Source: an uncultured Candidatus Saccharibacteria bacterium (GTDB lineage: Bacteria > Patescibacteriota > Minisyncoccia > Phycocordibacterales > UBA1006). Taken from it: a DNA stretch of 64,000 nucleotides. Shown piece by piece: positions 6,715 through 59,500 of the stretch (the first letter of the stretch is position 1; every line of letters starts with the position of its first letter). The notes under the pieces were generated by a model. It saw nothing but the letters and a program-made list of their open reading frames with translations. It did not search any database and had not been told where the DNA came from. The stretch is taken from assembly GCA_964415895.1 (NCBI GenBank), contig CAYQCC010000001.1, positions 17,934 to 81,933 of the forward strand, written 5' to 3'. Position numbers and translations under genes: made by a program.

Positions 6715-8472
6715 ATGGAAAAACAACACCTTTCTTCATCTGATATCCGAAATAGATTCTTGGCTTTTTTTGAAAAACGCGGCCACGCGATTTTGCCGTC
6801 TGCAAGTTTAGTCCCTGAAAATGACCCTTCGGTGTTGTTCAACACGGCTGGAATGCAACCGCTTGTTCCGTATTTGATGGGACAAAAACATCCACTTGGA
6901 AACCGATTGGCATCATGCCAGAAGTGTGTGAGAACAGGCGATATAGAGGAAGTTGGGAATCACAAGAACCTGACGTTTTTTGAAATGCTTGGAAACTGGT
7001 CATTGGGTGATTATTTTAAAGAAGATGCTATCAAGTGGAGTTATGAATTTTTAACAAACAAAGATGAAGGTCTTGGGCTGGATCCAACGCGATTGTATGT
7101 GACTGTATTTGAAGGTGATGACAATGCGCCACGTGATATGGAAGCAGTTGAGATATGGAAGCAGTATATTCCTGAAAACCGAATTTATTTCCTGCCAGCA
7201 AAAAACAACTGGTGGAGTCCTGGAGATAATGGACCATGTGGACCTGATAGTGAAATGTTTTATGACGTGACACCAAACGGATTGGGTGACATGACTCATG
7301 ACGAATATGTGTCAGCAGATGACGATGGACGGGTTGTTGAGATTTGGAACGATGTATTTATGCAATACCTCTCAAAAGATGGAGCAGTCGTTGGAAAACT
7401 TGATCAAGCAAATGTTGATACAGGATCAGGATTGGAACGAGTGACAATGCTTGTGCAAGGAAAAACAAATGTGTACGAAACAGATTTGTTTGCATCGATC
7501 ATGAACATCATAAAAAATACAGCAGGCGACACATATGAAGAGCGAAGTGCGCGCATTATTGCAGACCATATTAAAGCCGCATTGTTTCTTATGGCAGATG
7601 GAGTATTTCCTTCAAACAAAGAGCGAGGATATATTTTACGAAGAATCATACGAAGAGCTGTATTCCGTGGTGGTAAGCTCAAACTTGATCAAAATGCTTA
7701 CGGGATTATAATGAATCTTTACATTGATATTTATAAAGATATATATCCTGAAGTTACGAAAGAAGGCTTGGCAGAAACTTTTGCTCAAGAAGCGATTAAG
7801 TTTATCAAGACTCTTGATGCTGGATTAAAAGAATTTGAGAAAGGCGTTGATCCGTTTATGCTTGCGACAACATACGGATTTCCGATTGAACTTACGGAGG
7901 AACTTGCAACGGAGAAGGGTATTACGATTGACCGCGCAAAATTCGATCGCGAAATGGCAGAACACCAGGAAAAATCCCGAGCAGGCGCAGAACAGAAATT
8001 CAAAGGCGGGCTTGGTGGAACATCTGACAAGATTGTCCGATCACACACTGCACATCACTTGCTATTAGCAGCGCTTCGGAAAGTTCTAGGTGAACATGTT
8101 CATCAAAGAGGAAGCAATATTACTGATGAGCGTATTCGAATCGATTTTGCACATGATGCAAAAATGACCGATGAACAAAAAACAGAAGTGGAACAACTTG
8201 TAAATGAATGGATTAAAACTGATATGCCAATGCAGCGGATGGAAATGCCACGGGCGGAAGCTGAGCAGATCGGTGCTGAAATGGAATTCGGTGTGAAATA
8301 TCCAGATTTAGTTTCAGTATATTTTATCGGAAACAACCTAGACTCTGCAATTTCAAAAGAATTTTGTGGTGGTCCGCATATTGACCATACAGGATTGATC
8401 GGAACATTCAAGATTCAGAAAGAAGAGGCAAGTAGCGCAGGTGTACGACGCATAAAGGCAGTTATTGAATAG
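6715..8472 (+). CDS. alaS: alanyl-tRNA synthetase, short form (catalytic plus editing domains, no C-Ala domain)
   Basis: The N-terminal class II core matches AlaRS. Editing-site motifs HTAHHLL and CGGPH are present. Only 585 aa. Confidence 0.8.
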   Translation: MEKQHLSSSDIRNRFLAFFEKRGHAILPSASLVPENDPSVLFNTAGMQPLVPYLMGQKHPLGNRLASCQKCVRTGDIEEVGNHKNLTFFEMLGNWSLGDYFKEDAIKWSYEFLTNKDEGLGLDPTRLYVTVFEGDDNAPRDMEAVEIWKQYIPENRIYFLPAKNNWWSPGDNGPCGPDSEMFYDVTPNGLGDMTHDEYVSADDDGRVVEIWNDVFMQYLSKDGAVVGKLDQANVDTGSGLERVTMLVQGKTNVYETDLFASIMNIIKNTAGDTYEERSARIIADHIKAALFLMADGVFPSNKERGYILRRIIRRAVFRGGKLKLDQNAYGIIMNLYIDIYKDIYPEVTKEGLAETFAQEAIKFIKTLDAGLKEFEKGVDPFMLATTYGFPIELTEELATEKGITIDRAKFDREMAEHQEKSRAGAEQKFKGGLGGTSDKIVRSHTAHHLLLAALRKVLGEHVHQRGSNITDERIRIDFAHDAKMTDEQKTEVEQLVNEWIKTDMPMQRMEMPRAEAEQIGAEMEFGVKYPDLVSVYFIGNNLDSAISKEFCGGPHIDHTGLIGTFKIQKEEASSAGVRRIKAVIE

Positions 8473-8499
8473 AAAAACTTCTCGGACAGAGAGGTTTTT
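8473..8499 (+). terminator. bidirectional rho-independent terminator
   Basis: AAAAA-CUUCUC-GGACA-GAGAGG-UUUUU. Confidence 0.55.
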
Positions 8500-8626
8500 C
8501 ATTTATTACATAACATTGACATGTTATCATTTTAAAGATATTGTGTAGGAAATATAAAACCTCTTTGTCAATAAACTAATAAAATCAAAAATAATTAAAT
8601 AACCAAAAAGAAAAACAAAACTACTA

Positions 8627-11362
8627 ATGAAAAACACAATCAAAGTACTATTGGCAATTTTATTGCTGATCTGTACAAAAACAGCGGTGGCTCAAGCAAG
8701 TCACAAGACTGGATTTTATCCGGTCAGTTCTTTAACGTTTAAGTTAAATTGGAATGTTGGCTCTAACCAACGACTCGAAGTACGTGTAAATAATGGTCTG
8801 TGGGCTTCATATAGTGGCGATATTGTTTTAACAGATCGTTCTAACGAACCTAATAGTTGGGAAAATCGTATCTATTCAAACCCAAGTTGTTGGTATCCAG
8901 TGGATACCACAGCAGGAAGCGGTCCTCGAAATAAAATAAATATTATTTCTGTCCGTTTGATAAATACGACCAACATGACGATTGTCAAAGATTCTGTATA
9001 TGGAATAGGAATGGGGTCTTATCCTTATCCTGGCTACTACAGCAGCTTTGTAACAGTTGACCCAGATGAATTTGACTACATGATGAGAAATGAGATGGAG
9101 GACATAGAAATACCTGGATGGGTATTCATATTTTCTCCGATTGGCAAACTTGAGGTTAGTCAAAGAATTACTTTTAATATCGCATCAGGAAGCAGTTCTT
9201 GTATGGCGGATAGAAGTTACTCTATTAAGGGTGACAAGGTAATGAAAACATCTCTTTTGTCAGAAAACGGAACTATTGAGGATTTAAAAAGTGTAAAGGC
9301 ACGATCATTGAAACATTATGCTCCTGCTAATCACGAAATCATGGGTGCTATCCTCGACACTTCACTTATTACGATTGGTGGAATGCGAAGCAGGCCAGCA
9401 ATTCTTTACGTTAATGGTTCCTACTGGAGTCTACGCATGTTTCAAGTAAAGGCAGAGAATGAGAGGGAGTTGGCAAAGAAATGGAATACCGATAAGGATT
9501 CCATTGATATCATTTCACTTATTCATTTCAATTTGTACATTGATACATTGGAGCATGGTTGTATAACGTACACATTTCCATTGGACTCAGTTCTTGGCAA
9601 GCCACATCTCCCACAAACGAGTTGGCGAAAAATGAACGAAGCATATGCTGCATTTCTAAAAGGCGACAAATCTCTTGCACAATCAATTGCAGGAAAAATG
9701 AAAAAACCAAGTTCAACATCAAGATTAATGCGTGATACAAGTATTGTTGTTTGTGGAACATATGTAAAATTTAATTTTGCTTATGATTCACTTTCTACCG
9801 CGTTCTATCTTGCTCTCGGATTTGATAGTATTCAATTTTTTCCAGAAGAATTTGTTCCTGTTGGTAAGATGGTCATTGTTAGAAATCCGTATGACGGACA
9901 GAAGAACATGATCGGTGTTGCCGAAGAAGGGACAGCGGACAGATTTCAGCCGATTGGACAAGAAATGTACGAAATGCGATTCGACACTACTCATAATCAT
10001 TCACAACGATTAAGTATGATTATTGAATCGGACGATTTTCTAAGATGTTTTAATGGAATTCATTGGACTCATGCACATGATGTTATTGAAAACAATGTTG
10101 CAATTGCTCTGTCGAACAAAACAAAGCCAACATTGATTGTGACTGATTACGACGATGGCTCTATTAATGCAGGGCCCTATGGAGACAACTGGGACAATAA
10201 AATCATGCATGATAATACAATTTACGACAAAGGATTTCTTGCGAGTTCTATAAGAATGATATTTAAAGATCCAGAAACCAAAGAAAGAAACTTGTTATTA
10301 TATCAAGGAATGGTAAACAGCATTTATCGTGTAAACCGTACAACAGGAGCGTTAAATAAGATACGTAGCCGATTAATGCCAGCTTACAATTATCATTTCC
10401 ATGCATGGAATGGTGATCCAAACGGCGGGACGGATTCATTAAACGTAGAAGCGTCTTTTGCTCAGCTTAGATACAATTTCGAGCGAAGAAATTTGGGCGC
10501 ACTACAGGCAACAGTGAATTATTGGTTTCCGAACGATTCATTAGATATGAGAAAAGACTATCACGAAATACGTGTTGTCTTTGATTCTATACCTTTGAAT
10601 CTTACTGAAATCGTATTTAATAGAGACACGTTGATGCATTTCAAGAAAAACGCTACTGTTAGTTACTTAAGAAAAGCAATCGAGATTGATGCTAGAAAAC
10701 TTAGCAACAATCCTGATTACGGAAGATTATACTTTAAAGAATACCCAGATTCTGGGCTACATTTTAAATTAATACCTGATAGTGTTATTACACTGACTCT
10801 TGTAATGAGGCCTGTTGAAGTACTGCCAGTTGAGCTTACGTATTTTGTATGTTCATCTAACGCAGAAGGAATATTACTTTCATGGCAAACAGCATCAGAA
10901 TTCAATAGTGATTACTTTGTCATTGAATATGCTTCTGATGACTCGCTTCGTTTTGGTAGCATTGGTGTTGTTAATGCGGCAGGTAATAGTAATACGCTCT
11001 TGAACTATTCATTTTCAGATGCTGGATCAGGTTATTATCGCTTGAAACAAGTAGATAATGATGGGCATTTTACATACAGCAATACGATTGGATGTCACAG
11101 GGTAATTACTGATACACAAATACATATACAAGAAGGAAAACCTTTAATTCTTTTCCCGAATCCTGGAAGTGGTGTTATTTACATCCAAGGTTTAAAAGAC
11201 CAAAAAGGTACTATTACTGTTATTAATGAGCTATCGCAGATCGTTCTGCAGCAAGTTGATAATTTACAACAAATTAATATCTCTTTACTAGCTAACGGCA
11301 TGTACATGCTACAACTTATTAAAGACGATAAAATATATACTGGAAAGTTTATAAAGCAGTAA
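8627..11362 (+). CDS. large secreted protein with T9SS-type (Por) C-terminal sorting domain
   Basis: N-terminal signal peptide MKNTIKVLLAILLLICTKTAVAQA. The C-terminal ~75 aa, ILFPNPGSGVIYIQG...NGMYMLQLIKDDKIYTGKFIKQ, match the Por_Secre_tail pattern. An upstream ~70-aa segment LTYF..W.TASE...F.IE.S....F..IG...AAGNS is also present. Confidence 0.6.
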   Translation: MKNTIKVLLAILLLICTKTAVAQASHKTGFYPVSSLTFKLNWNVGSNQRLEVRVNNGLWASYSGDIVLTDRSNEPNSWENRIYSNPSCWYPVDTTAGSGPRNKINIISVRLINTTNMTIVKDSVYGIGMGSYPYPGYYSSFVTVDPDEFDYMMRNEMEDIEIPGWVFIFSPIGKLEVSQRITFNIASGSSSCMADRSYSIKGDKVMKTSLLSENGTIEDLKSVKARSLKHYAPANHEIMGAILDTSLITIGGMRSRPAILYVNGSYWSLRMFQVKAENERELAKKWNTDKDSIDIISLIHFNLYIDTLEHGCITYTFPLDSVLGKPHLPQTSWRKMNEAYAAFLKGDKSLAQSIAGKMKKPSSTSRLMRDTSIVVCGTYVKFNFAYDSLSTAFYLALGFDSIQFFPEEFVPVGKMVIVRNPYDGQKNMIGVAEEGTADRFQPIGQEMYEMRFDTTHNHSQRLSMIIESDDFLRCFNGIHWTHAHDVIENNVAIALSNKTKPTLIVTDYDDGSINAGPYGDNWDNKIMHDNTIYDKGFLASSIRMIFKDPETKERNLLLYQGMVNSIYRVNRTTGALNKIRSRLMPAYNYHFHAWNGDPNGGTDSLNVEASFAQLRYNFERRNLGALQATVNYWFPNDSLDMRKDYHEIRVVFDSIPLNLTEIVFNRDTLMHFKKNATVSYLRKAIEIDARKLSNNPDYGRLYFKEYPDSGLHFKLIPDSVITLTLVMRPVEVLPVELTYFVCSSNAEGILLSWQTASEFNSDYFVIEYASDDSLRFGSIGVVNAAGNSNTLLNYSFSDAGSGYYRLKQVDNDGHFTYSNTIGCHRVITDTQIHIQEGKPLILFPNPGSGVIYIQGLKDQKGTITVINELSQIVLQQVDNLQQINISLLANGMYMLQLIKDDKIYTGKFIKQ

Positions 11363-11389
11363 TGCTTTAAGTTTTCCTTTTAATAAAAA

Positions 11390-11420
11390 ATCCGTAGCTA
11401 CGTGCTGCGGATTTTCTTTA
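11390..11420 (+). terminator. rho-independent terminator (9-bp stem AUCCGUAGC/GCUGCGGAU, U-rich tail)
   Basis: Stem, loop UACGU, then TTTCTTTACACTTTTTT. Confidence 0.65.
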
Positions 11421-11452
11421 CACTTTTTTAGGTTCAGTGATATACTATTTGC

Positions 11453-12604
11453 ATGTCATTGTTTTCTTCTCCTAATATACAAGAAAATTCTCTTCGAGTT
11501 TTGTGGCGTATTGATAGTGCTGGAATTTCTGTGATGGTTGTAGATACGCAATCACATGTATATTACCATGATTCGCAGCCACTTATCGTTTTTGCGATGG
11601 ATGATCGTCATATGTATGATCAATTATTACATCATACAGAAACAATCCTGATGAAAATGATTCCAGATGTGGTTTCATATATTTCTGGTATTTCTGAAGA
11701 TGTCACAGTAGTTTTGGGTGAGCCATGGGCTCATAGTATTCGACGGCACATTACCTATAAGCGAAAGACTCCATTTAAACTTACAAAGTCATTTATTAAT
11801 GATTTAATTTCTCGTGATATAAAACGAATTCAAAAAGAATATAAAGATGAAGAGATTGAATTTATTGATCCAACCTATCACGATTTACTAATTGCAGGTC
11901 ACGCTGCAATGAACCCATGGGGGAAAACGGTTACTGATATTCGTTTTGATTACGTAACAGGTTTTTCTGATATTCGCATTGTAAAACTTGTAAAACAGGT
12001 CATTCATGAAAAAATGAAGGCGAAATTACTTGATATTACTATTGATCATTACCAAAACTTCTTGATACGATTTTGGAAGCGAACCAATTTGTCAGATGGA
12101 TTATTTATTGATGGATCTGGATTTGTTACCGATTTATCTATCTTCAAGCGCAATCAATTAGTTCAGGCTGGGACGTTACCAATGGGATTTTCAATGATTC
12201 GAAATGAATTGGCAAGTTATCTGGGAATGTATCCAAATGAATTAGAATCACTACTTTCGTTGTATCAAAAAAATCTTCTTTCTGACTCAGTTTCTAGTAG
12301 AATTGAGAAGGGAATGCATGATTTATTTGTTTCTTGGGAAAAAGATTTTCAAATGTTCTGTAATCATGCAACACAGCAAGGTGATATTTTAGATCAAGTT
12401 GTATGGTCAGGAGATTCGAATGATGTTGTTCTGCAATTCTTTATGCACCAACTGGCAGATGACTCGATTCAATTTCCTATTGTATTTGGAACAAGTCAGG
12501 TTGGATTTTTGCATAGTGGAATATTGGTTAATAATCTAAATCAAGAAACAGGATTGGAATCATCTGCGCCAAATACTGATCACATTATTGTTGCAGGATT
12601 GTAA
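11453..12604 (+). CDS. hypothetical protein, possibly actin-fold ATPase (FtsA/PilM-like)
   Basis: The N-terminal LRVLWRIDSAGISVMVVD and the later IDGSGFVTDLSIF..GTLPMGF motifs resemble sugar-kinase/actin-fold phosphate-binding motifs. TATACT at 11441-46 is 6 nt before the ATG. Confidence 0.3.
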   Translation: MSLFSSPNIQENSLRVLWRIDSAGISVMVVDTQSHVYYHDSQPLIVFAMDDRHMYDQLLHHTETILMKMIPDVVSYISGISEDVTVVLGEPWAHSIRRHITYKRKTPFKLTKSFINDLISRDIKRIQKEYKDEEIEFIDPTYHDLLIAGHAAMNPWGKTVTDIRFDYVTGFSDIRIVKLVKQVIHEKMKAKLLDITIDHYQNFLIRFWKRTNLSDGLFIDGSGFVTDLSIFKRNQLVQAGTLPMGFSMIRNELASYLGMYPNELESLLSLYQKNLLSDSVSSRIEKGMHDLFVSWEKDFQMFCNHATQQGDILDQVVWSGDSNDVVLQFFMHQLADDSIQFPIVFGTSQVGFLHSGILVNNLNQETGLESSAPNTDHIIVAGL

Positions 12605-12619
12605 TAATTTACTCACTAT

Positions 12620-13963
12620 ATGATACAGCGGAAAGTAGGACAAGATATGGTAGTGCGAAAAAAACCTTCACAACCAGTGAGGGTTGCTTCGCGTACAGAA
12701 CCTATAAAGGAAAGTGCACCTATAAAAAGACCCGCTCCTGTTGTTCAGGCACCTGTTTATAGAAAGCCGGAACCTGCGCGACCGGCTTCTCGACGTGAAG
12801 ATTCTAATGACGAAATGTTTAAAGAAGTATTTTCGCCACATCATTCGAGTGAGCGTCCACCTGCACGTGGTGGTGTTTTGTGGATCTTGGCTGGCGTTGC
12901 CTTTATTGCACTTGTGATTTCGATTATTTCACTTTTTGCAAAGGCAACTATCAATGTCACACTTGCCGAATCAGTAACTCCTATTGATATGCCAATTACG
13001 TTGTATGCGGAACCTTCTGATGGGCAAATTGCTTTTAAAACTGCAAAAATCGTGGATAAACAGTCAACACTTGTAGTGACGACTAACAAACAATCAGTAT
13101 CTACTGCAGCGTCAGGTACTGTAAAATTATTCTCAACGTCAGCAAAGCTTGTGACTATTGCAGCAGGAACACAATTAATAAATACTGAAAAGAAGACATT
13201 TACCACAAAATCCAAGGTGGTTATTCCAGGTGGTTCTGTTAACAAGCCTGGCTCTGCAGAAGTTATTGTTACGGCAACAGTAGTCGGGGCAGATTCAAAT
13301 ATTAAATTAGACGATTTGAAACTACCAGCCTTTCCAGCAGTGGTAGCTCGAACAACAACAGAAATTACAGGCGGTGTTTCAGGAGATCAATTTATATTGA
13401 ATGAAGCAGAATTAACAGCAGCAAAAGCAAAACTTGATAGTGTCATAAAGGCATCAAATCCTGCTGCATTTTTATCGAATCAGATACCTGCTAATTTTAT
13501 GTTGCCAGAATCATTGCTTCAAATTTCTGATATTACATATCACACAGAATCGACTGATACAGGCGTGTCTGTTATAGCGGAACGAACTATCACAGGAAAC
13601 ATGATCGACAAGGAAAACTTTCATCAATTTTTAATTAATCAACTTCCAGAATCAGAAAGGGAATACATGACTATTTATTCAGACGCCAATACATCATTCT
13701 CTCTTGCTCCAAATTCAGTATCCGTTGATAATTCAACCTTACAAATACAGGCGAAAGGAACATTCACAGCTCGTGCACAGTTTGATGAAGCAGCTGCGCG
13801 AACTGTTATTGCGCGTGTCAAAAAATCTGCAGCAAATACATTATTACGAGCCATACCTGGTGTAATTTCGTCAGATCTTGAACTTTTTCCACCATGGTCT
13901 AGTCGTCTGCCTGGTAAAATCTCTGGTATTATTTTTAACATTTCATACCAATCGGGAAAATAG
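12620..13963 (+). CDS. hypothetical membrane-anchored protein (Pro-rich N-terminus, one transmembrane helix, large extracytoplasmic domain)
   Basis: PAPVVQAPVYRKPEPARPASRRED followed by transmembrane segment VLWILAGVAFIALVISIISLF. No family recognised. Confidence 0.4.
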   Translation: MIQRKVGQDMVVRKKPSQPVRVASRTEPIKESAPIKRPAPVVQAPVYRKPEPARPASRREDSNDEMFKEVFSPHHSSERPPARGGVLWILAGVAFIALVISIISLFAKATINVTLAESVTPIDMPITLYAEPSDGQIAFKTAKIVDKQSTLVVTTNKQSVSTAASGTVKLFSTSAKLVTIAAGTQLINTEKKTFTTKSKVVIPGGSVNKPGSAEVIVTATVVGADSNIKLDDLKLPAFPAVVARTTTEITGGVSGDQFILNEAELTAAKAKLDSVIKASNPAAFLSNQIPANFMLPESLLQISDITYHTESTDTGVSVIAERTITGNMIDKENFHQFLINQLPESEREYMTIYSDANTSFSLAPNSVSVDNSTLQIQAKGTFTARAQFDEAAARTVIARVKKSAANTLLRAIPGVISSDLELFPPWSSRLPGKISGIIFNISYQSGK

Positions 13964-14315: not shown

Positions 14316-14429
14316 ATGAAAGTACAATCATCAATCAAAAAAATTAGTCCAGATGACATTATTGTGCGTCGAAAAGGTCGTCTGTTCCGCATTAACAAAA
14401 AGAATCCACGCCACAAAGCGCGTCAATAA
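14316..14429 (+). CDS. rpmJ: 50S ribosomal protein L36, zinc-less (C-minus) form; missing from the ORF track (37 aa)
   Basis: ATG at 14316, TAA at 14427-29. The product is [37 protein letters not shown], which aligns to L36 with the Cys ligands replaced by S/D/N. It sits in the conserved infA-rpmJ-rpsM position. Confidence 0.75.
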
Positions 14430-20727: not shown

Positions 20728-20750
20728 AAACACCATTTGGTGTTTTTATT
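20727..20750. terminator. bidirectional terminator AAAACACCA-UU-UGGUGUUUU between convergent genes
   Basis: Perfect palindrome flanked by A-run and T-run. Confidence 0.65.
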
Positions 20751-21291
20751 TTTGAAATATTTTTAACAACTCAGTCTCTGTTTCCGCGTCCAGATTATTC
20801 GTTGTCATGATCATCATTTCTGTCGTCAGGTCCAGATCTTTCTTGATATTCATAAACAGGTGTTCGTAGGGAAATGGGGAAATCCATGCTGAATTTTTGA
20901 GTAATTCAAACCCGGCTTTTTTCAAGAGATATCGCAATGCCTCGCGTTCGGATTTTCGGGATTCTGGTAGATCAAGCAATACGATCCGCCACTGTCCGTC
21001 CCAGTTGGGAACCAGGGTAGAATCCGATTCCAATTGGATACTGACTGCCTTTCGTTTACCAGCCCGGGTCAGCCGTGCATAGTCGTTCTGGCCTGAAAAA
21101 TGGCTCTCTACAAGGCCTGATTCATGCAAACCGCGCAATGACCGATTCAGGGCATATTGTGCCTTTTTTGGGTCATTTTCAGCCTTTTCAGAGACGTCCT
21201 TTATAAGTTTGCCTGCAAGATCAGGAAAGGAAACCGCACGATTCTCAGACAGTATTTTCAATATTTTCTTGGAGTAATCTTGATTTTTCAT
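20746..21291 (-). CDS. putative transcriptional regulator, PaaX-like (winged-helix N-terminus; C-terminal WDGQWRIVLLDLPE region)
   Basis: The DGxW..V..DlPE.....R...R..L...GF motif resembles the PaaX C-terminal domain. The N-terminus is winged-helix-like. The assignment is tentative. Confidence 0.35.
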   Translation of the reverse strand: MKNQDYSKKILKILSENRAVSFPDLAGKLIKDVSEKAENDPKKAQYALNRSLRGLHESGLVESHFSGQNDYARLTRAGKRKAVSIQLESDSTLVPNWDGQWRIVLLDLPESRKSEREALRYLLKKAGFELLKNSAWISPFPYEHLFMNIKKDLDLTTEMMIMTTNNLDAETETELLKIFQK

Positions 21292-24494: not shown

Positions 24495-24635
24495 AAAGAT
24501 TGTTTAATTGAATTATATATTAGCATATATAGCTTACTTTGTCAATATATTATTCAACCTTCTTTCCGAACATGTCTAAGGACGTGTTTGGTATAGAGGT
24601 GAGAAAATCTCAATCTCGTGTATACTTATAAACTT

Positions 24636-25544
24636 ATGAGTAAAGACTATTACAAAACATTAGGAGTAGATAAAAAAGCAACAGAGCCCGAGATAAAGGC
24701 TGCTTTTCGTAAACTTGCTCATCAACATCATCCAGATAAAAACGGAGGAAAGGATGAAAAGTTCAAAGAAATTAACGAGGCATACCAAACTCTTTCGAAT
24801 TCGCAAAAGCGAGCGCAGTATGACCAGTTCGGATCATCTGGACCAGGAGGTTTTGGAGGTGGTCAGCAGGGAAATCCGTTCGGTGGTGGAGCTTTCAATT
24901 GGGAAGATATCATGCGACAGGCACAACAAGGTCAAGGCGGTGCGCAGTTTGATTTTGGCGATATTGATTTGGGAGATTTGTTTGGTGCATTTGGATTCGG
25001 TGGACAGCGTGTACGAAGAGGGCGAAACATTGAGGTTCAAATGAAAATGACATTCAAGGAGTCAGTTCGTGGATTTACACGTGATATTGATGTTCCTGAT
25101 TATCGTGACGGAAAACAGTCTGGAATGAAAAAAGTTTCTGTAACAATTCCAGCAGGGGTCACGCATGGTCAACAATTGCAAATGGATGGAGCAGGGGAAT
25201 CTGTAACTGATGGTCGTCCAGGAAGTTTGATTATTACAGCTATTGTTGAAAAACATCCTACTATCCGAAAGGAGGGACAGCATTTGGTTATGGATCTGCA
25301 TGTATCGTTGATCGACGCTTTGCTTGGAAAGAAGGTCGAGGTTGAAACATTAGACGGAAAGGAAACAATTGAAATTCCAGAGGGAATGCCAGTGAACCAT
25401 GTGATCAAATTGAAAGGAAAAGGTGTATCAGCAGGATTTATGCGTAATGGTGATTTTCTGATTGAAACACATATTGATATGCCAAAAAAGATTTCTAAGT
25501 CTGCTAAACAGAAAATCGAAGACTTGCGAGGCGACTTGGCATAG
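24636..25544 (+). CDS. dnaJ: DnaJ-like co-chaperone (J domain, G/F-rich, C-terminal substrate-binding domains, no CxxCxGxG zinc finger)
   Basis: DYYKTLGVDKKATEPEIKAAFRKLAHQHHPDKN J domain. GGFGGGQQGNPFGGG linker. No Cys repeats. The track ORF starts at 24618; the MSKDYY start is at 24636. Confidence 0.75.
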   Translation: MSKDYYKTLGVDKKATEPEIKAAFRKLAHQHHPDKNGGKDEKFKEINEAYQTLSNSQKRAQYDQFGSSGPGGFGGGQQGNPFGGGAFNWEDIMRQAQQGQGGAQFDFGDIDLGDLFGAFGFGGQRVRRGRNIEVQMKMTFKESVRGFTRDIDVPDYRDGKQSGMKKVSVTIPAGVTHGQQLQMDGAGESVTDGRPGSLIITAIVEKHPTIRKEGQHLVMDLHVSLIDALLGKKVEVETLDGKETIEIPEGMPVNHVIKLKGKGVSAGFMRNGDFLIETHIDMPKKISKSAKQKIEDLRGDLA

Positions 25545-27366: not shown

Positions 27367-28269
27367 TTACAGCCACTTCTTCTTGTTGAAATACATCATC
27401 ATAATCAAAAGAATAACAACCAGTATTCCTATTACGATCCAAAATCCGTTTTCTCCGTGGAAGATATGTGGCGATGCAGGATCGAATAATATAATTGCAA
27501 TTAATGAAAGAGGGAATGTAACGAACGACATTAATGTAAGTGTTCGCATAATTTCGTTAGTTCTATTTGTAAGTAATGAATCGTATGTCTGACGTAATTC
27601 CTGCGTCATTTCGCGAGAACTATCCATAATGGTTGTCAGGTGATAATACCGATGCATAATTGACTGTACAACAGATTCAAATTCATCACCAAACAATGCA
27701 ATTGCTTCATGTTCAAACGATGTAAGGATTTCATGATGAAACCGCAGTGCTGACTTACAATCAAGTAATTTTCTGTGAAGAGTAATTAATATTTTAGAGA
27801 TTGAAGAATCGTTTTCACCAAAGATTCTATTTTCTACATCAGTAATATCCTTTTTAATAAGTGACAATTCATCAATAAGACCATCATACAGATCGTCGAT
27901 CATTAGTCCAAAAATATTTCCACCATGGATATCTGCCATGGGTGACTTGTTGCTTGCAGTGTGTTTTTTCTCGAACGATAACAACGTATCTATTGGCAAA
28001 TATCTATTAGTAATAATGAACTTTTTATGTACTATAAAATCGATTTCAATAGCGCCTCCAGTTTTATGTGCTGGGTGATCGGGAAAATGAAGAACAAAAA
28101 ACAGATAATCATCGTACCGGACTGCTTTTGCTCGCAAAGATGGACGCAATAATTCGATCGCACATGACTCATTAATATCAAATTCGTTAATAATAGTATG
28201 GATTTCCTCGGTGGTTGGGTTTTCCAAATCAATCCATGGAATGCCGTATAAATCATTGCGGTTTATCAT
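27367..28269 (-). CDS. CorA-like divalent cation transporter (divergent; GMN motif absent)
   Basis: Soluble N-terminal domain plus 2 C-terminal transmembrane helices ending KKKWL. ...FPLSLIAIILFDPASP occupies the position of the YGMNF motif. Apparently co-transcribed with cysS (20-nt gap). Confidence 0.5.
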   Translation of the reverse strand: MINRNDLYGIPWIDLENPTTEEIHTIINEFDINESCAIELLRPSLRAKAVRYDDYLFFVLHFPDHPAHKTGGAIEIDFIVHKKFIITNRYLPIDTLLSFEKKHTASNKSPMADIHGGNIFGLMIDDLYDGLIDELSLIKKDITDVENRIFGENDSSISKILITLHRKLLDCKSALRFHHEILTSFEHEAIALFGDEFESVVQSIMHRYYHLTTIMDSSREMTQELRQTYDSLLTNRTNEIMRTLTLMSFVTFPLSLIAIILFDPASPHIFHGENGFWIVIGILVVILLIMMMYFNKKKWL

Positions 28270-34892: not shown

Positions 34893-35948
34893 ATGAAGAA
34901 GCAAAAAAACGAAACACCACTCTTTAAAAGGAAAACTGACATTATTGCAACACTAGGGTCTTCGTGTGACACAAACGAAACAACATTGCAAATGATACAA
35001 CATGGAATAACTATGGTTCGTATTAATATGAGCCATGGTGATCACGCTGAACATCACGAGCAGATCTTACGAGTTCGAAGATGTGCCAAGCAACTTGGCG
35101 TATCAGTAAAGATAATTGTTGACCTCGGCGGCCCAAAGATTAGAGTTGGATCAATGGAAAAAGACGTGTATTTGAAAGAAGGTTCAAAGGTTGTCATTAC
35201 GACAAAACCTTACATAGGAACTGCAAACCGTTTTAGTGTTTCTTATAAAAAGCTTCCACATGAAGTTCGTAAAGGTCAATATATTTTGATTGCTGATGGT
35301 AAAAGAAAACTTCAAGTTGTCTCAATAGACAAATCGGATGAAATTATTTGCAAGGTTATTACGGGTGGATTATTAACATCTCGTCGTGGTGTAAATATTC
35401 CAGGCGCGGAATTAAGTGTTCCATCAATTACTGCAAAAGATAAAATAGATATGCAGTTTGCTGCAGATCACAAAGCAGAATATATTGCATTATCATTTGT
35501 TCGTTCAGTAAAGGATATTAAACAAGCACGACTATTGTTAAAAAAATTAGGATTACATGCTCAAATAGTTAGTAAGGTTGAAACCGTTGAGGCTATAGAT
35601 AGACTTGAAGACATTGTGAAAGAGTCAGATGTGGTCATGGTTGCGCGTGGTGATCTTGGAATGGAAATCGGATATGAACATGTTCCGATCGAGCAGAAAA
35701 GAATGATTGCTTTGGGAAAAAAATATGGAAAACCAGTGATCGTTGCAACACAATTACTTGATTCAATGGAAAAATCACCAGTCCCAACTCGTGCAGACGT
35801 TTCGGATATTGCAGGAGCTGTATATGATGGTGCGTCAGGACTTATGGTTTCAGGAGAAACTGCTGCAGGGAAACATCCTATTGAAGTTATCGAAGTTATG
35901 AATAAGGTTGCAGTAGCAGTGGAAAAAGCAATGCAGCAAAGTATGTAG
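34893..35948 (+). CDS. pyk: pyruvate kinase, barrel domain only (no C-terminal regulatory domain)
   Basis: KTDIIATLG...NMSHGDHAEH and MVARGDLGMEIG...VATQLLDSM motifs. Only 351 aa. Confidence 0.75.
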   Translation: MKKQKNETPLFKRKTDIIATLGSSCDTNETTLQMIQHGITMVRINMSHGDHAEHHEQILRVRRCAKQLGVSVKIIVDLGGPKIRVGSMEKDVYLKEGSKVVITTKPYIGTANRFSVSYKKLPHEVRKGQYILIADGKRKLQVVSIDKSDEIICKVITGGLLTSRRGVNIPGAELSVPSITAKDKIDMQFAADHKAEYIALSFVRSVKDIKQARLLLKKLGLHAQIVSKVETVEAIDRLEDIVKESDVVMVARGDLGMEIGYEHVPIEQKRMIALGKKYGKPVIVATQLLDSMEKSPVPTRADVSDIAGAVYDGASGLMVSGETAAGKHPIEVIEVMNKVAVAVEKAMQQSM

Positions 35949-46078: not shown

Positions 46079-46588
46079 TCAACCCTTCTCGTGTGTAGAA
46101 GTTTTACCCCATACGCTAAGAAAATGATTTATGTCTTCATGGATATCTAGGACTACTGTTTTTATAACTGCCTCATCTTTCTCATCACCATCCTCCTTAT
46201 AGAACATGTATGTAACTTTTTTGAAGTTATGAGAAATCTTATATATTAGGAAATTATATTTTACTTTTCCATCAAATACGAGCTCATTCCAATCATGTGC
46301 AAAGGCATTTCTCGGGAGACGAATTCTTTTATTTTTAAAATCGTCTTTTGAAGTTATGGAATAGTAACTTGAAAGTTTTATATACAAAAGCTGAATATTT
46401 AGATCGAGTTGTATTAATTCTCTATTGGCCTGAAATAAATCCATAACAGTGAAATGGTTTAGCATTTCATCTGAAGAGTCTAGGTTATTGCCAGTCAAAC
46501 TAAAAAATAATTCTCTTCCTTCAGAAATAAAGGTAATTAAATTAGCTATTTCTTGCTCAAGTCTTCCTTTGTTATTTCCAGCAATCAT
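46079..46588 (-). CDS. hypothetical protein with HEPN-like RNxxxH motif (PRNAFAHD); downstream partner of a two-gene module
   Basis: 169 aa. RNAFAH matches the R-[NHQ]-x3-H catalytic motif of HEPN RNases. It overlaps the upstream gene by 17 nt, which suggests translational coupling. Confidence 0.45.
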   Translation of the reverse strand: MIAGNNKGRLEQEIANLITFISEGRELFFSLTGNNLDSSDEMLNHFTVMDLFQANRELIQLDLNIQLLYIKLSSYYSITSKDDFKNKRIRLPRNAFAHDWNELVFDGKVKYNFLIYKISHNFKKVTYMFYKEDGDEKDEAVIKTVVLDIHEDINHFLSVWGKTSTHEKG

Positions 46589-47756
46589 ATAATAGTTTTA
46601 ATTTAAAATTGCAATTATTTTCAACGTAAGCAATTAAGGAGTTATTGACCATTAAGTCAAAATAAGAAATCACCGGTAGTAGTTCACTAATAGATATTTT
46701 CTTTCTATCGCGTACTCCTCCTGAAATCGCTTCATAGGCAGAATCATCAAAAGAGTTCATACTTATTAGCATTTGTAGGCCTTCGTGCACATATTTAGAA
46801 CGTGCAACGTATATTCTGTCCACAGTTTTTTTCAGAGGAATGATCTGACTTTCTCCTTTTTCGTTCGTAAACATTGTTTTAGTAAACTCAGCATTTTCTT
46901 TAAGAAGATATTTTTCAAAAAAAGAAACAACTGATTTGAAAGACCCTCTGTTCTCCCACATTGTATTAATTTGACTTAATTTTTCTTTATCCACCAACAC
47001 ATCAATGTATTCAGGAAAATCTTCCTTAAAACTAGACCTACCTTTCTCGATTGACGCTATTCCTTCAATTGCTACAACAAACTTTAGGTAAGCAATATCA
47101 TGATCAATGCCTATATTTTTTAAAGCTTCATGATATTCTCTGAAAGCGTGTATGATATTAAAGTGACCTTTGTCCGGAAGATTCATTACTTTCTGAAAAA
47201 AAGGAACGAGATCACTTGTAAGGTTCTTCTTTTTATCATCAAAAATTGATTTATATTCGCTTACTGTATTTGGTAAAAATATAGGATGAGTTATTTTAGT
47301 TGAGACCCCGGTATTATTTCTACTGACTTGATTTCTTAAATAAAAACGTGCTCTCAGACAAACAGCAAAAATACAAATTAGTTCTCCGGCGAGCCCTTCT
47401 TTAAAATAATAACCATCTTTTCTGGCACTGTCAAAATTATTTAACACTTTTGCACTGTATTCTTCGTTAGTCATTTTCCCTAATAAGGTAGGATTTATTA
47501 TTGTAGGAATCCGTAATAAATATCTATAGTAGCCAAATTCATTTTTCTCAGATTCTATCATTCTAAAAGTAATCGGATGCTTTTCTCCAATTTTAAAAAG
47601 TCCGCAGATTCTAGAATCTGAGAAGTATTCATACTCAGTAGCATAACCGGCAAAAAAGTCATCAGCGGGAACTTCGTATCCCTCTAATTCTTTGACGTAT
47701 GTTATGCACCGCATCCTATTATCAACAATATCTGTTACACTTTCTTTTTCAGTCAT
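46572..47756 (-). CDS. hypothetical 394-aa protein with C-terminal Rx4H motif (RIYVARSKYVHEG); upstream partner of the two-gene module
   Basis: No housekeeping family recognised. R-x4-H is embedded in a predicted helical C-terminal region. It lies next to tRNA-Glu. Confidence 0.45.
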   Translation of the reverse strand: MTEKESVTDIVDNRMRCITYVKELEGYEVPADDFFAGYATEYEYFSDSRICGLFKIGEKHPITFRMIESEKNEFGYYRYLLRIPTIINPTLLGKMTNEEYSAKVLNNFDSARKDGYYFKEGLAGELICIFAVCLRARFYLRNQVSRNNTGVSTKITHPIFLPNTVSEYKSIFDDKKKNLTSDLVPFFQKVMNLPDKGHFNIIHAFREYHEALKNIGIDHDIAYLKFVVAIEGIASIEKGRSSFKEDFPEYIDVLVDKEKLSQINTMWENRGSFKSVVSFFEKYLLKENAEFTKTMFTNEKGESQIIPLKKTVDRIYVARSKYVHEGLQMLISMNSFDDSAYEAISGGVRDRKKISISELLPVISYFDLMVNNSLIAYVENNCNFKLKLLYDCWK

Positions 47757-58078: not shown

Positions 58079-59500
58079 ATGAAAGATAGAATTTTAATTG
58101 GTGACTTATCAAGTCACAAGGGAAGTGAGGTCACAATCAATGGATGGGTTTCTGTTCGTCGTGATCAAGGGAAAATGGTTTTCTTTGATTTTCGAGATCG
58201 TACCGGATACGTGCAAGGAGTAGTTTTGCCAGGAAGTGCTGCAATCGACATTGCGAAAGAAATCAAAACTGAATATGTTGTTTCTGTTACAGGTAAAGTA
58301 AATGAACGACCAGAACGAAACCGACAGGCTGATAAGCAAAACGGTGATATCGAACTTGAAATTCTTGGAATGGAAATCTTGAACGAGACTGAAACGCTTC
58401 CATTTGAAATCAGTAGTGATACATCGGTAGTAGGTGAGGAAACACGCTTGAAATACCGATACATTGATTTACGCAGCGAGCGTGTTCAGAAAAACATCCG
58501 TATGCGCCACAAGATTCAGAAATTAATTCGTGACTTCTTGGATGGACAAGGATTCATCGAAGTGGAAACTCCAATCCTAACAAAGTCGACTCCAGAAGGA
58601 GCGCGTGATTATATTGTTCCATCACGTCTATATCCAGGAACCGTATATGCGTTGCCACAGTCGCCACAACAATACAAACAGCTGTTGATGACAGCAGGAG
58701 TGGAACGGTACTTTCAATTGGCACGTTGTATGCGCGATGAAGATACACGTGGAGACCGACAACCTGAATTTACGCAGCTAGACATGGAAATGAGTTTTGT
58801 TGATCAGGATGCAGTAATGCAAGTTAACGAGGAATTACTTATTAAAGTTGTGCAGGATTTATATCCAGAAAAGAAAATTCAGCAAATTCCATTTCCACGA
58901 ATTACCTATAAAGATGCGATGGAGAAATATGGAAATGACCGGCCTGATATTCGAAATGACAAAAATGATCCAGACTTGTTAGCGTTTTGTTGGGTAATTG
59001 ATTTCCCATTTTTCGAACCTACTGACAAATCAGACAATCCGGATACACATGGTGCATGGACATTTACTCACAATCCGTTTTCTGCACCAAAACCAGAACA
59101 TATGGAATGGTTAATAGAAAAGAAAAATATTGGTGAAATTTTGACGACACAATACGACATTGCATTGAATGGTTATGAAATTGGTGGAGGATCAATTCGA
59201 AACCATAAACCAGAAGCACTTCGAACAGTGTTTGAAATTATTGGACATAAGTCTGAAGACATTGATACAAACTTTGGCCACATGTTAAAAGCCTTTTCAT
59301 CTGGCACTCCGCCACATGGTGGAATTGCTTGGGGATTTGATCGATTCTTGATGCTGTTGCAAGGTGAGCCAAACATCCGCGAGGTGATCCCGTTCCCAAA
59401 AACAGGGGAGGGACGAGACTTAATGATGAATGCACCAGCTCCAGTTTCAGATCGACAGTTGGAAGAGCTTCATTTGATTGCAAAGAAAAAGAGTATTTAG
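58079..59500 (+). CDS. aspS: aspartyl-tRNA synthetase, short (archaeal/eukaryotic-type, no GAD insertion domain)
   Basis: N-terminal OB anticodon-binding domain and class II motifs (FRDRTG...; QSPQQYKQLLM; GGGSIRNH; GIAWGFDRFLM). Only 473 aa. Confidence 0.85.
   Translation: MKDRILIGDLSSHKGSEVTINGWVSVRRDQGKMVFFDFRDRTGYVQGVVLPGSAAIDIAKEIKTEYVVSVTGKVNERPERNRQADKQNGDIELEILGMEILNETETLPFEISSDTSVVGEETRLKYRYIDLRSERVQKNIRMRHKIQKLIRDFLDGQGFIEVETPILTKSTPEGARDYIVPSRLYPGTVYALPQSPQQYKQLLMTAGVERYFQLARCMRDEDTRGDRQPEFTQLDMEMSFVDQDAVMQVNEELLIKVVQDLYPEKKIQQIPFPRITYKDAMEKYGNDRPDIRNDKNDPDLLAFCWVIDFPFFEPTDKSDNPDTHGAWTFTHNPFSAPKPEHMEWLIEKKNIGEILTTQYDIALNGYEIGGGSIRNHKPEALRTVFEIIGHKSEDIDTNFGHMLKAFSSGTPPHGGIAWGFDRFLMLLQGEPNIREVIPFPKTGEGRDLMMNAPAPVSDRQLEELHLIAKKKSI

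Follow-up and report, generated by a model that had tools for sequence, protein, structure and literature searches.

Why would a bacterium of the Candidate Phyla Radiation (CPR) encode a protein that ends in a type IX secretion system (T9SS) sorting domain? CPR cells are said to have no outer membrane, the T9SS requires large proteins such as SprA (>2000 aa), and its sorting domain is regarded as a signature of Bacteroidota that is meaningless without an outer-membrane translocon; a search of the literature library used here found no paper on T9SS C-terminal domains (CTDs) in CPR bacteria. The question is raised by an open reading frame (ORF) at positions 8627-11362, on the + strand, of a 64-kb stretch of CPR-like DNA, which is analysed here at its full length and is called the window. 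The reading that we favour, and hold to be fairly probable, is that this ORF is a horizontally exchanged gene for a Sec-exported T9SS-type cargo protein of 911 aa, that it lies as a unit of its own in the spacer between alaS and a gene for a 383-aa protein, and that its CTD has been retained with some function. The parts of this protein are known, and the unusual thing is its genomic host.

A T9SS-type cargo protein and its CPR-like host

The 911-aa protein consists of a signal peptide, an N-terminal region with a CotH-like body, a beta-rich module and a type A CTD. The CTD occupies residues 842-911 (11150..11359, + strand; PNPGSG ... GMYML ... KFIKQ). PF18962 (Por_Secre_tail) matched residues 842-909/911 over its full model (E 1.1e-8, 35.6 bits, gathering cut-off 27), and TIGR04183 matched the extreme C-terminus, also with its full model covered (E 1.2e-9, 38 bits, cut-off 23). 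A first-pass annotation of the sequence had proposed such a domain and had named failure at profile thresholds as a refutation, which did not occur. When a profile built from the window protein and six homologues (alignment A1) was run against PDB sequences, it matched solely T9SS CTDs (8glk_D, 7pzj, 5jvk, 5uyt, 8glj_D and 8qb1).

The signal peptide proposed in the same annotation, residues 1-22 (8627..8692, + strand), was borne out by sequence inspection: the first residues, MKNTIKVLLAILLLICTKTAVA|QAS, show the succession of n, h and c regions seen in substrates of signal peptidase I, with predicted cleavage at AVA|Q. A1 conserves this A|Q site, with small residues at -3 and -1 in 7/7 homologues and an invariant Gln23 (+1). 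This glutamine has the position of the 'Q-rule' Gln, which directly follows the signal peptide and is Bacteroidetes-specific (PMC5837995). A lipoprotein reading was rejected, as Cys16 lies outside any lipobox and is unconserved in A1.

Between the signal peptide and the C-terminal modules, residues 23-730 (8693..10816, + strand) form the N-terminal region and a body of the CotH family (atypical kinase-like). The Pfam CotH match (PF08757) of the window protein was weak (E 0.073, 13 bits, cut-off 23.8), while 6/7 A1 members matched this family at E<=0.01 (best 8.2e-16), so that its CotH membership is one by transitive homology. The closest A1 members, P0002 and P0003, are 42-43% identical to it over 98% of the query. 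A profile of the 37-sequence family (A4) reached the Bacillus CotH structure 5jd9, weakly (E 0.009), and PDB profile searches with A1 and A5 matched no CotH structure. D485, N490, D507 and D509 are invariant across the seven A1 sequences; this Asp/Asn/Asp pattern would be the one expected of an active CotH-type kinase, and the body therefore probably modifies an extracellular or surface substrate. Directly before the CTD, residues 732-827 (10820..11107, + strand) form a beta-rich module of ~95 aa (LPVEL...W.TASE.N..F.VE.S.DG..F..IG...G.SN....Y.F.D...YYRLKQVD.DG), which matched no family in the Pfam scan and carries no Pfam name. A custom hidden Markov model (HMM) derived from A1 detected it in front of the CTD also in L022 and L023, where two proteins of non-CPR contigs carry it.

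We then asked what kind of genome surrounds this gene. All 62 ORFs of the window were scanned with Pfam, of which 59, beyond the three focal + strand ORFs (8627-11362, 911 aa; 11453-12604, 383 aa; 12620-13963, 447 aa), were concatenated into pseudo-proteins. No T9SS component was found among the 62 ORFs, no T9SS family among the 10 Pfam-less ORFs scanned with NCBIfam, and no outer-membrane or lipopolysaccharide (LPS) gene among the window ORFs, in agreement with the first-pass annotation, which had seen no T9SS machinery here. The window holds housekeeping genes: MnmA, AlaRS, S13, S11, S4, RpoA, L17, L13, S9, GrpE, DnaK, DnaJ, CysRS, CorA, L21, MraZ, RsmH, FtsI, pyruvate kinase, a P-type ATPase, TerC, FtsE/X, TrpRS, Pif1, AspRS, ScpA/B, MraY and FtsW. 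Several of their products are short, among them AlaRS (585 aa, 6715-8472; catalytic and second additional domain only), AspRS (473 aa, 58079-59500), pyruvate kinase (351 aa, barrel only, 34893-35948) and DnaJ (24618-25544, no match to the zinc-finger domain), which fits a streamlined CPR genome. The view that this is a reduced, CPR-like genome thus stood, given the housekeeping-only content and a Saccharibacteria-labelled contig (L006) with the same alaS junction, whose AlaRS C-terminus is 87.5% identical.

The CTD would be an ordinary secretion signal if a T9SS, or an equivalent envelope machine, were encoded elsewhere in the genome. The window is a 64-kb part of the genome, and at least two different CTD cargos occur at one related locus (L008, in a metagenome-assembled genome, MAG), both of which leave room for such a machine; against it stand the window itself, in which no component was found, the lack of an outer membrane described for CPR cells, and the large proteins, SprA among them, that a T9SS needs. 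We consider this explanation very improbable.

An insertion between alaS and the 383-aa gene

The stretch alaS / 911-aa gene / 383-aa gene / 447-aa gene / infA was identical in two independent SRA assemblies (L001, L002), and this identical arrangement argues against an assembly chimera. An assembly or binning artefact, by which a Bacteroidota gene had been wrongly joined into a CPR contig, could be suspected from the Bacteroidota hallmarks of the gene (CTD and Q-rule). It is extremely improbable, since the junctions recur unchanged in these two further assemblies, the same alaS junction is found in L006, the intergenic DNA on either side runs on as it does in relatives, and the composition of the gene matches the window.

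Relatives without the 911-aa gene locate the insert. In L018/L019 (383-aa homologue 79% identical) and L020/L021 (50%), the gene order is that of the window, MnmA-x-MgtC-PepF-x-AlaRS-383-447-infA-S13-S11-S4-RpoA-L17-L13-S9, and alaS stands directly before the 383-aa gene, with a spacer of 80 or 55 bp. The segment inserted in the window runs from ~8504 to ~11430, between the alaS hairpin and the -10 box of the 383-aa gene; comparison of the junctions showed the alaS hairpin conserved at the left, and the -10 box and ATG of the 383-aa gene conserved at the right. Because relatives with the same gene order lack it, the 911-aa gene is, judged by synteny, a lineage-variable insertion, and it has promoter-like and terminator-like signals of its own.

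At the left edge, a terminator-like hairpin of alaS (8472..8500, + strand) was found in the terminator scan, and an equivalent hairpin lies 3' of alaS in L018 and L020. It is followed by a promoter-like site of the 911-aa gene, TTGACA-17-TATTGT (8516..8544, + strand), identified as a consensus match in a region where the number of promoter-like sites is not above shuffle expectation. The gene has an A-rich leader of ~80 nt without a Shine-Dalgarno (SD) motif. At the right edge, a hairpin with a T-run, AAAATCCGTAGC-TACGT-GCTGCGGATTTT-CTTT (11387..11421, + strand; inverted repeat I23), is likely the terminator of the 911-aa gene by its sequence, and is absent from the list of the consensus terminator scan. 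The promoter-like site of the 383-aa gene (11417..11446, + strand) has a -10 box that ends 6 nt before the ATG, so that the transcript of the 383-aa gene looks leaderless; the site is conserved in L018. The 911-aa gene would accordingly form a separate transcription unit, placed in what is otherwise a spacer of ~80 bp between alaS and the 383/447 pair.

Two further observations concern these signals. An imperfect inverted repeat of 32 nt (8485-8569; 78% complementary, 21-nt spacer) overlaps the insert's promoter-like site as well as the terminator of alaS. Furthermore, in many window genes the ATG is preceded at a distance of 6-12 nt by a TATAAT-like box, for example in those at 2539, 5463, 11453, 48408, 55912 and 59570, and on the - strand in those at 27367, 45404, 46572 and 52799. 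Together with the finding that just 4/62 window genes have an SD-like motif within 20 nt, this suggests, from the sequence, that leaderless mRNAs are widespread in the window; the 911-aa gene, with its ~80-nt A-rich leader, differs from the genes that look leaderless. Because so few window genes (4/62) have an SD-like motif, its lack cannot serve as a Bacteroidota mark of the insert.

The site itself is variable. The contig L006, labelled 'uncultured Candidatus Saccharibacteria bacterium', holds at the same alaS site a copy that is only 32% identical, next to the AlaRS tail of 87.5% identity, from which the alaS-383 locus is, at sequence level, variable and fast-evolving. Several origins were considered for the insert and rejected. 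A mobile element was set aside, as no flanking direct or inverted repeats beyond chance size and no transposase or integrase were found near the insert; a phage origin, as no relative was found in IMG/VR; and the target of a diversity-generating retroelement, as the window has no reverse transcriptase and the link between CotH and such elements in the literature concerns a viral protein. Composition (GC 0.367 and GC at third codon positions, GC3, 0.299 for the 911-aa gene; 0.379 and 0.294 for the window) is uninformative as evidence of recent transfer, because gene and window agree in it and low GC marks the candidate donors as well.

The first-pass annotation had also proposed that the 911-aa gene and the two genes downstream form a surface or cell-envelope module. 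Synteny ruled this out. L018-L021 have the 383/447 pair without the 911-aa gene and, conversely, other CotH-CTD genes lie at unrelated loci, after S12-S7 (L012-L014), after trigger factor (L003/L005, L008) and beside S14-S8-L6 (L016/L017), with no homologue of the 383-aa or 447-aa gene near any of them. The 911-aa gene is independent of the pair, and where a genome is streamlined, the fact that genes are neighbours says little for their being a functional module.

Exchange across phyla and apparent retention of the sorting domain

The family of the 911-aa protein is rare. An exhaustive HMMER search with residues 1-730 retrieved 40 cluster representatives (E<=1e-3) among 1.84 billion; by the family HMM, ~24 of the 40 have the CTD and ~10 have the beta module as well, and a metagenome scan added two further loci, both short. 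The nearest known relative of the window copy is <=48% identical. Full-length relatives are encoded on contigs of 'Candidatus Paceibacteria' and 'Candidatus Saccharibacteria' MAGs, and family members also occur on low-GC contigs of 'Chitinophagales' MAGs. The latter contigs are not CPR, because they carry PdxJ, a fatty-acid hydroxylase, cytochrome oxidase/NorQ and a GDP-mannose dehydratase.

The family is thus shared across phyla. One Saccharibacteria MAG copy (L008) and one Chitinophagales MAG copy (L009) are 70% identical across the whole protein, CTD included, and a neighbour-joining (NJ) tree places the copies from Chitinophagales within the clade of CPR copies. Another locus (L026) has an N-terminal fragment, 45% identical, beside genes with signal peptides ending in AQ/SQ. 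Bacteroidota have been reported as over-represented donors in horizontal gene transfer to Patescibacteria (PMC12455944). Taken together, the labels of both phyla, the 70% identity, the nesting in the NJ tree, the Q-rule Gln and the reported Bacteroidota donors indicate, as far as sequences can, repeated exchange of a Bacteroidota-style cargo gene. The copies of 70% identity under Saccharibacteria and Chitinophagales labels are also a testable lead to the partners of uncultured CPR bacteria. The window copy is not a fresh arrival, in view of its host-like GC and GC3 and its <=48% identity to the nearest relative.

Members of the CotH subfamily were also seen in other surroundings. CTD-less relatives lie inside polysaccharide-biosynthesis clusters (L024, 1-22049, with P0007; L010, 643-21963) that comprise a Wzm/Wzt ABC exporter, five PhyH hydroxylases, radical-SAM/SPASM proteins and a carbamoyltransferase, which hints at surface-glycan modification as the ancestral job of this subfamily. 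At another locus (L016, 9129-18095; also L017), the CotH-CTD gene heads a secreted-looking run of a GDSL lipase, a 1106-aa GEVED-domain protein and a CarboxypepD_reg protein; this run adjoins S14-S8-L6-L18-S5-L15-SecY, with no L30 called between S5 and L15.

Has the CTD been kept for a use, or merely carried along? In each examined copy from a Patescibacteria-labelled or CPR-like context it is intact, and it is kept in the window copy, P0002-P0006, L006 and L008 despite an overall identity of 30-48%. Between the CTDs of L012 and L013, the only pair close enough to compare, nonsynonymous differences were far fewer than synonymous ones (pN 0.15, pS 0.52, dN/dS ~0.19, from 72 codons with synonymous sites near saturation). 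A second T9SS-CTD protein of 967 aa, unrelated to the CotH-CTD cargo, is encoded at 15612-18515 of L008, a Saccharibacteria-labelled MAG, 3.4 kb downstream of the CotH-CTD gene; it combines an M43 metallopeptidase domain with five InlB B-repeat (Flg_new_2) domains and has a PF18962 match of 31.7 bits. Because of these intact copies, the low dN/dS, the host-like composition and the second CTD protein of L008, we favour retention of the CTD for a reason over pure relic status.

The same data can be read differently: transfer may be so frequent and recent that the CTD has had no time to decay, and would be a functionless passenger of a protein that works, if at all, only by its CotH body after Sec export. 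Cross-phylum copies up to 70% identical and the interleaving of Chitinophagales and CPR copies in the tree suggest that exchange is ongoing, no other region is as poorly conserved as the CTD, CTD-less relatives exist, and close relatives differ in whether they have the gene, all as this explanation would have it. The window copy, however, is <=48% identical to any known relative and has host-like GC and GC3, yet its CTD scores above both cut-offs; nor would a passenger be expected to show pN well below pS in L012 and L013, or an intact CTD in all examined copies of Patescibacteria-labelled or CPR-like context. We judge a passenger CTD to be unlikely, while giving it real weight.

Retention of a functional CTD on an exchanged cargo gene, the reading we prefer, has itself several points that weigh against it. 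The absence of a T9SS beyond the 64-kb window is assumed from what is known of CPR, and the host is a Saccharibacteria-like CPR bacterium on the support of gene content and of the NCBI label of a related contig. The NJ tree leaves the direction of each transfer unsettled. The window protein itself is below the PF08757 gathering score, and the spacing of D485/N490/D507/D509 resembles that of D228/D251, the catalytic Asp of Bacillus subtilis CotH (PMC7821199), in a mapping made from spacing. The dN/dS estimate is limited by its few codons and near-saturated synonymous sites, and the CPR label of the two contigs compared is taken from their context. Finally, some clade members lack the CTD (e.g. 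P0057), and between distant copies it is the least conserved part of the protein (17-33% identity), which also fits relaxed constraint; low conservation is usual for T9SS CTDs.

On our preferred reading, the 911-aa protein would cross the cytoplasmic membrane by Sec and signal peptidase I and would end on or outside the cell surface, where its CotH-like body may act on an extracellular or surface substrate. In a CPR host, the CTD would probably drive no outer-membrane translocation, because the SprA translocon, the PorV shuttle, the PorU sortase and the anionic LPS (A-LPS) anchor are not expected there. It would most likely still serve at the surface, as a folded Ig-like domain that helps in retention or adhesion or is recognised by a Bacteroidota partner.

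A more specific form of such recognition is mimicry or hijacking, in which CTD-tagged proteins displayed or released by the CPR cell would be recognised by PorV and by the PorU/attachment complex of a Chitinophagales-type partner, for adhesion or anchoring. This would suit the maintenance of the CTD where neither an outer membrane nor a T9SS is expected, the exchange of the family specifically with Chitinophagales-labelled genomes, the fast divergence at one locus (32% beside an AlaRS tail of 87.5%), which is typical of interaction proteins, and the second CTD-tagged protein of a Saccharibacteria MAG, a peptidase with InlB-type repeats. Yet the T9SS engages CTDs from the periplasmic side, so that an external CTD would need a non-canonical route; the case for a physical association comes from sequence comparison; and the Saccharibacteria hosts named in an activated-sludge study are Actinobacteriota (PMC12592800). 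We hold mimicry to be improbable. If true, it would make the CTD an inter-species docking or anchoring tag, and Bacteroidota previously unrecognised hosts of these lineages of Saccharibacteria/Paceibacteria-like CPR epibionts.

Intact and apparently maintained CTDs are thus found in Patescibacteria-labelled or CPR-like genomes, where no T9SS is expected, and the cargos that bear them are of two kinds at least: a CotH-like enzyme and an M43 peptidase. Either the fold of the CTD is put to a second use, at the surface or in adhesion, or the contact of CPR cells with Bacteroidota is close enough for cargo genes of the latter to be exchanged and used again and again. For annotation, this means that contamination is not the necessary conclusion when a CPR MAG has a 'T9SS type A sorting domain-containing protein'.

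The downstream gene pair and known systems compared

Outside the insert, the 383-aa gene (11453..12604, + strand) encodes an actin-fold protein of the FtsA/PilM type, as the first-pass annotation had supposed from motifs and as the predicted fold now indicates. Its AlphaFold2 (AF2) model (predicted local distance difference test score, pLDDT, 86.9) had FtsA as top Foldseek match (4a2a, E 6e-16, TM-score 0.62) and also matched PilM (5eox, E 7e-14; 5eox/5eou about E 1e-13). At sequence level, the Pfam FtsA match was weak (E 0.027, 15.2 bits, cut-off 31.8), as it was in 6/18 homologues (best 6e-4), and the NCBIfam scan gave no match.

The 447-aa protein (12620..13963, + strand) is bitopic with a Pro-rich N-terminus, again as first described: residues 1-79 are disordered, Pro-rich and cytoplasmic, with the first ~15 residues nearly invariant, and are followed by a transmembrane helix at residues 84-105 (nt 12869-12934). 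The ectodomain (nt 12935-13960) is beta-rich and has a Baseplate_J-like beta-barrel, in keeping with a baseplate J/wedge-like fold; neither the window nor L018 and L020 contain a phage-tail or contractile-injection gene (sheath, tube, spike or other).

Homologues of the 383-aa protein (46-81% identical) and of the 447-aa protein (37-75%) are always adjacent. The pair lies between alaS and infA (11453-13963 in the window, 10001-12494 in L018, 10001-12560 in L020), its neighbours being alaS (or the insert) and infA, with no ftsZ or pil gene adjoining it. PilM-PilN and FtsA-FtsN suggest, by analogy, that the conserved peptide at the N-terminus of the 447-aa protein may bind the 383-aa ATPase, and the pair looks like a conserved, lineage-specific envelope system that is independent of the insert.

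Elsewhere in the window, rpmJ (L36, 37 aa) lies at 14316-14429, between infA and rpsM; at this length it falls below the limit of the default ORF list. A 181-aa protein with a central PaaX_M (Cas2-like) domain is encoded at 20746-21291 (- strand), and in the same place in L018. At 46079-47756 (- strand), two overlapping ORFs (169 and 394 aa) with no Pfam or NCBIfam match and a local GC of 0.333 lie beside a tRNA-Glu (47991-63); this stretch may be a small island.

Compared with known systems, the downstream pair resembles FtsA/PilM and their bitopic partners (FtsN, PilN) in the fold of the 383-aa protein, in a partner gene 16 nt downstream, and in a bitopic partner whose conserved cytoplasmic part is its extreme N-terminus. 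It differs from them in that the 383-aa protein has no significant sequence match to these families and no adjacent ftsZ or pil genes, and in the Baseplate_J-like ectodomain of the 447-aa protein, a feature absent from PilN and FtsN. Unlike the Baseplate_J (PF04865) proteins of phage tails or contractile injection systems, the 447-aa protein is membrane-anchored, has a cytoplasmic tail and belongs to no tail locus.

The CTD-less homologues P0007 (L024) and L010 share with the 911-aa protein the N-region, the CotH body and the signal peptide with its Gln (identity 28-31% for P0007 and, over aligned segments, 24-34% for L010). They have neither the beta module nor the CTD, and stand among Wzm/Wzt, PhyH, radical-SAM and carbamoyltransferase genes; this context suggests that they act in surface-glycan modification, which is not to be assumed for the window protein. 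With the CotH atypical kinases (PF08757; 5jd9/5jda), the 911-aa protein has in common profile similarity at family level, and D..(x4)N ... DxD is conserved in its A1 alignment. In contrast to CotH of the Bacillus spore coat, it is predicted to be secreted and surface-directed, and it is much larger, with ~250 extra N-terminal residues, the beta module and the CTD.

Finally, the 911-aa protein departs from type A cargo proteins of the T9SS (gingipain RgpB; Flavobacterium johnsoniae 8glk/8glj) in its setting: its gene appears to lie outside Bacteroidota, in a CPR/Saccharibacteria-like segment without T9SS genes, where an outer membrane and an A-LPS anchor are not expected. In its build it agrees with them, with a predicted Sec signal peptide, Gln at +1, an enzyme body followed by a beta module, and a terminal CTD of ~70 aa that has the PNP..G, G.Y and K..K motifs and lies above both curated cut-offs.

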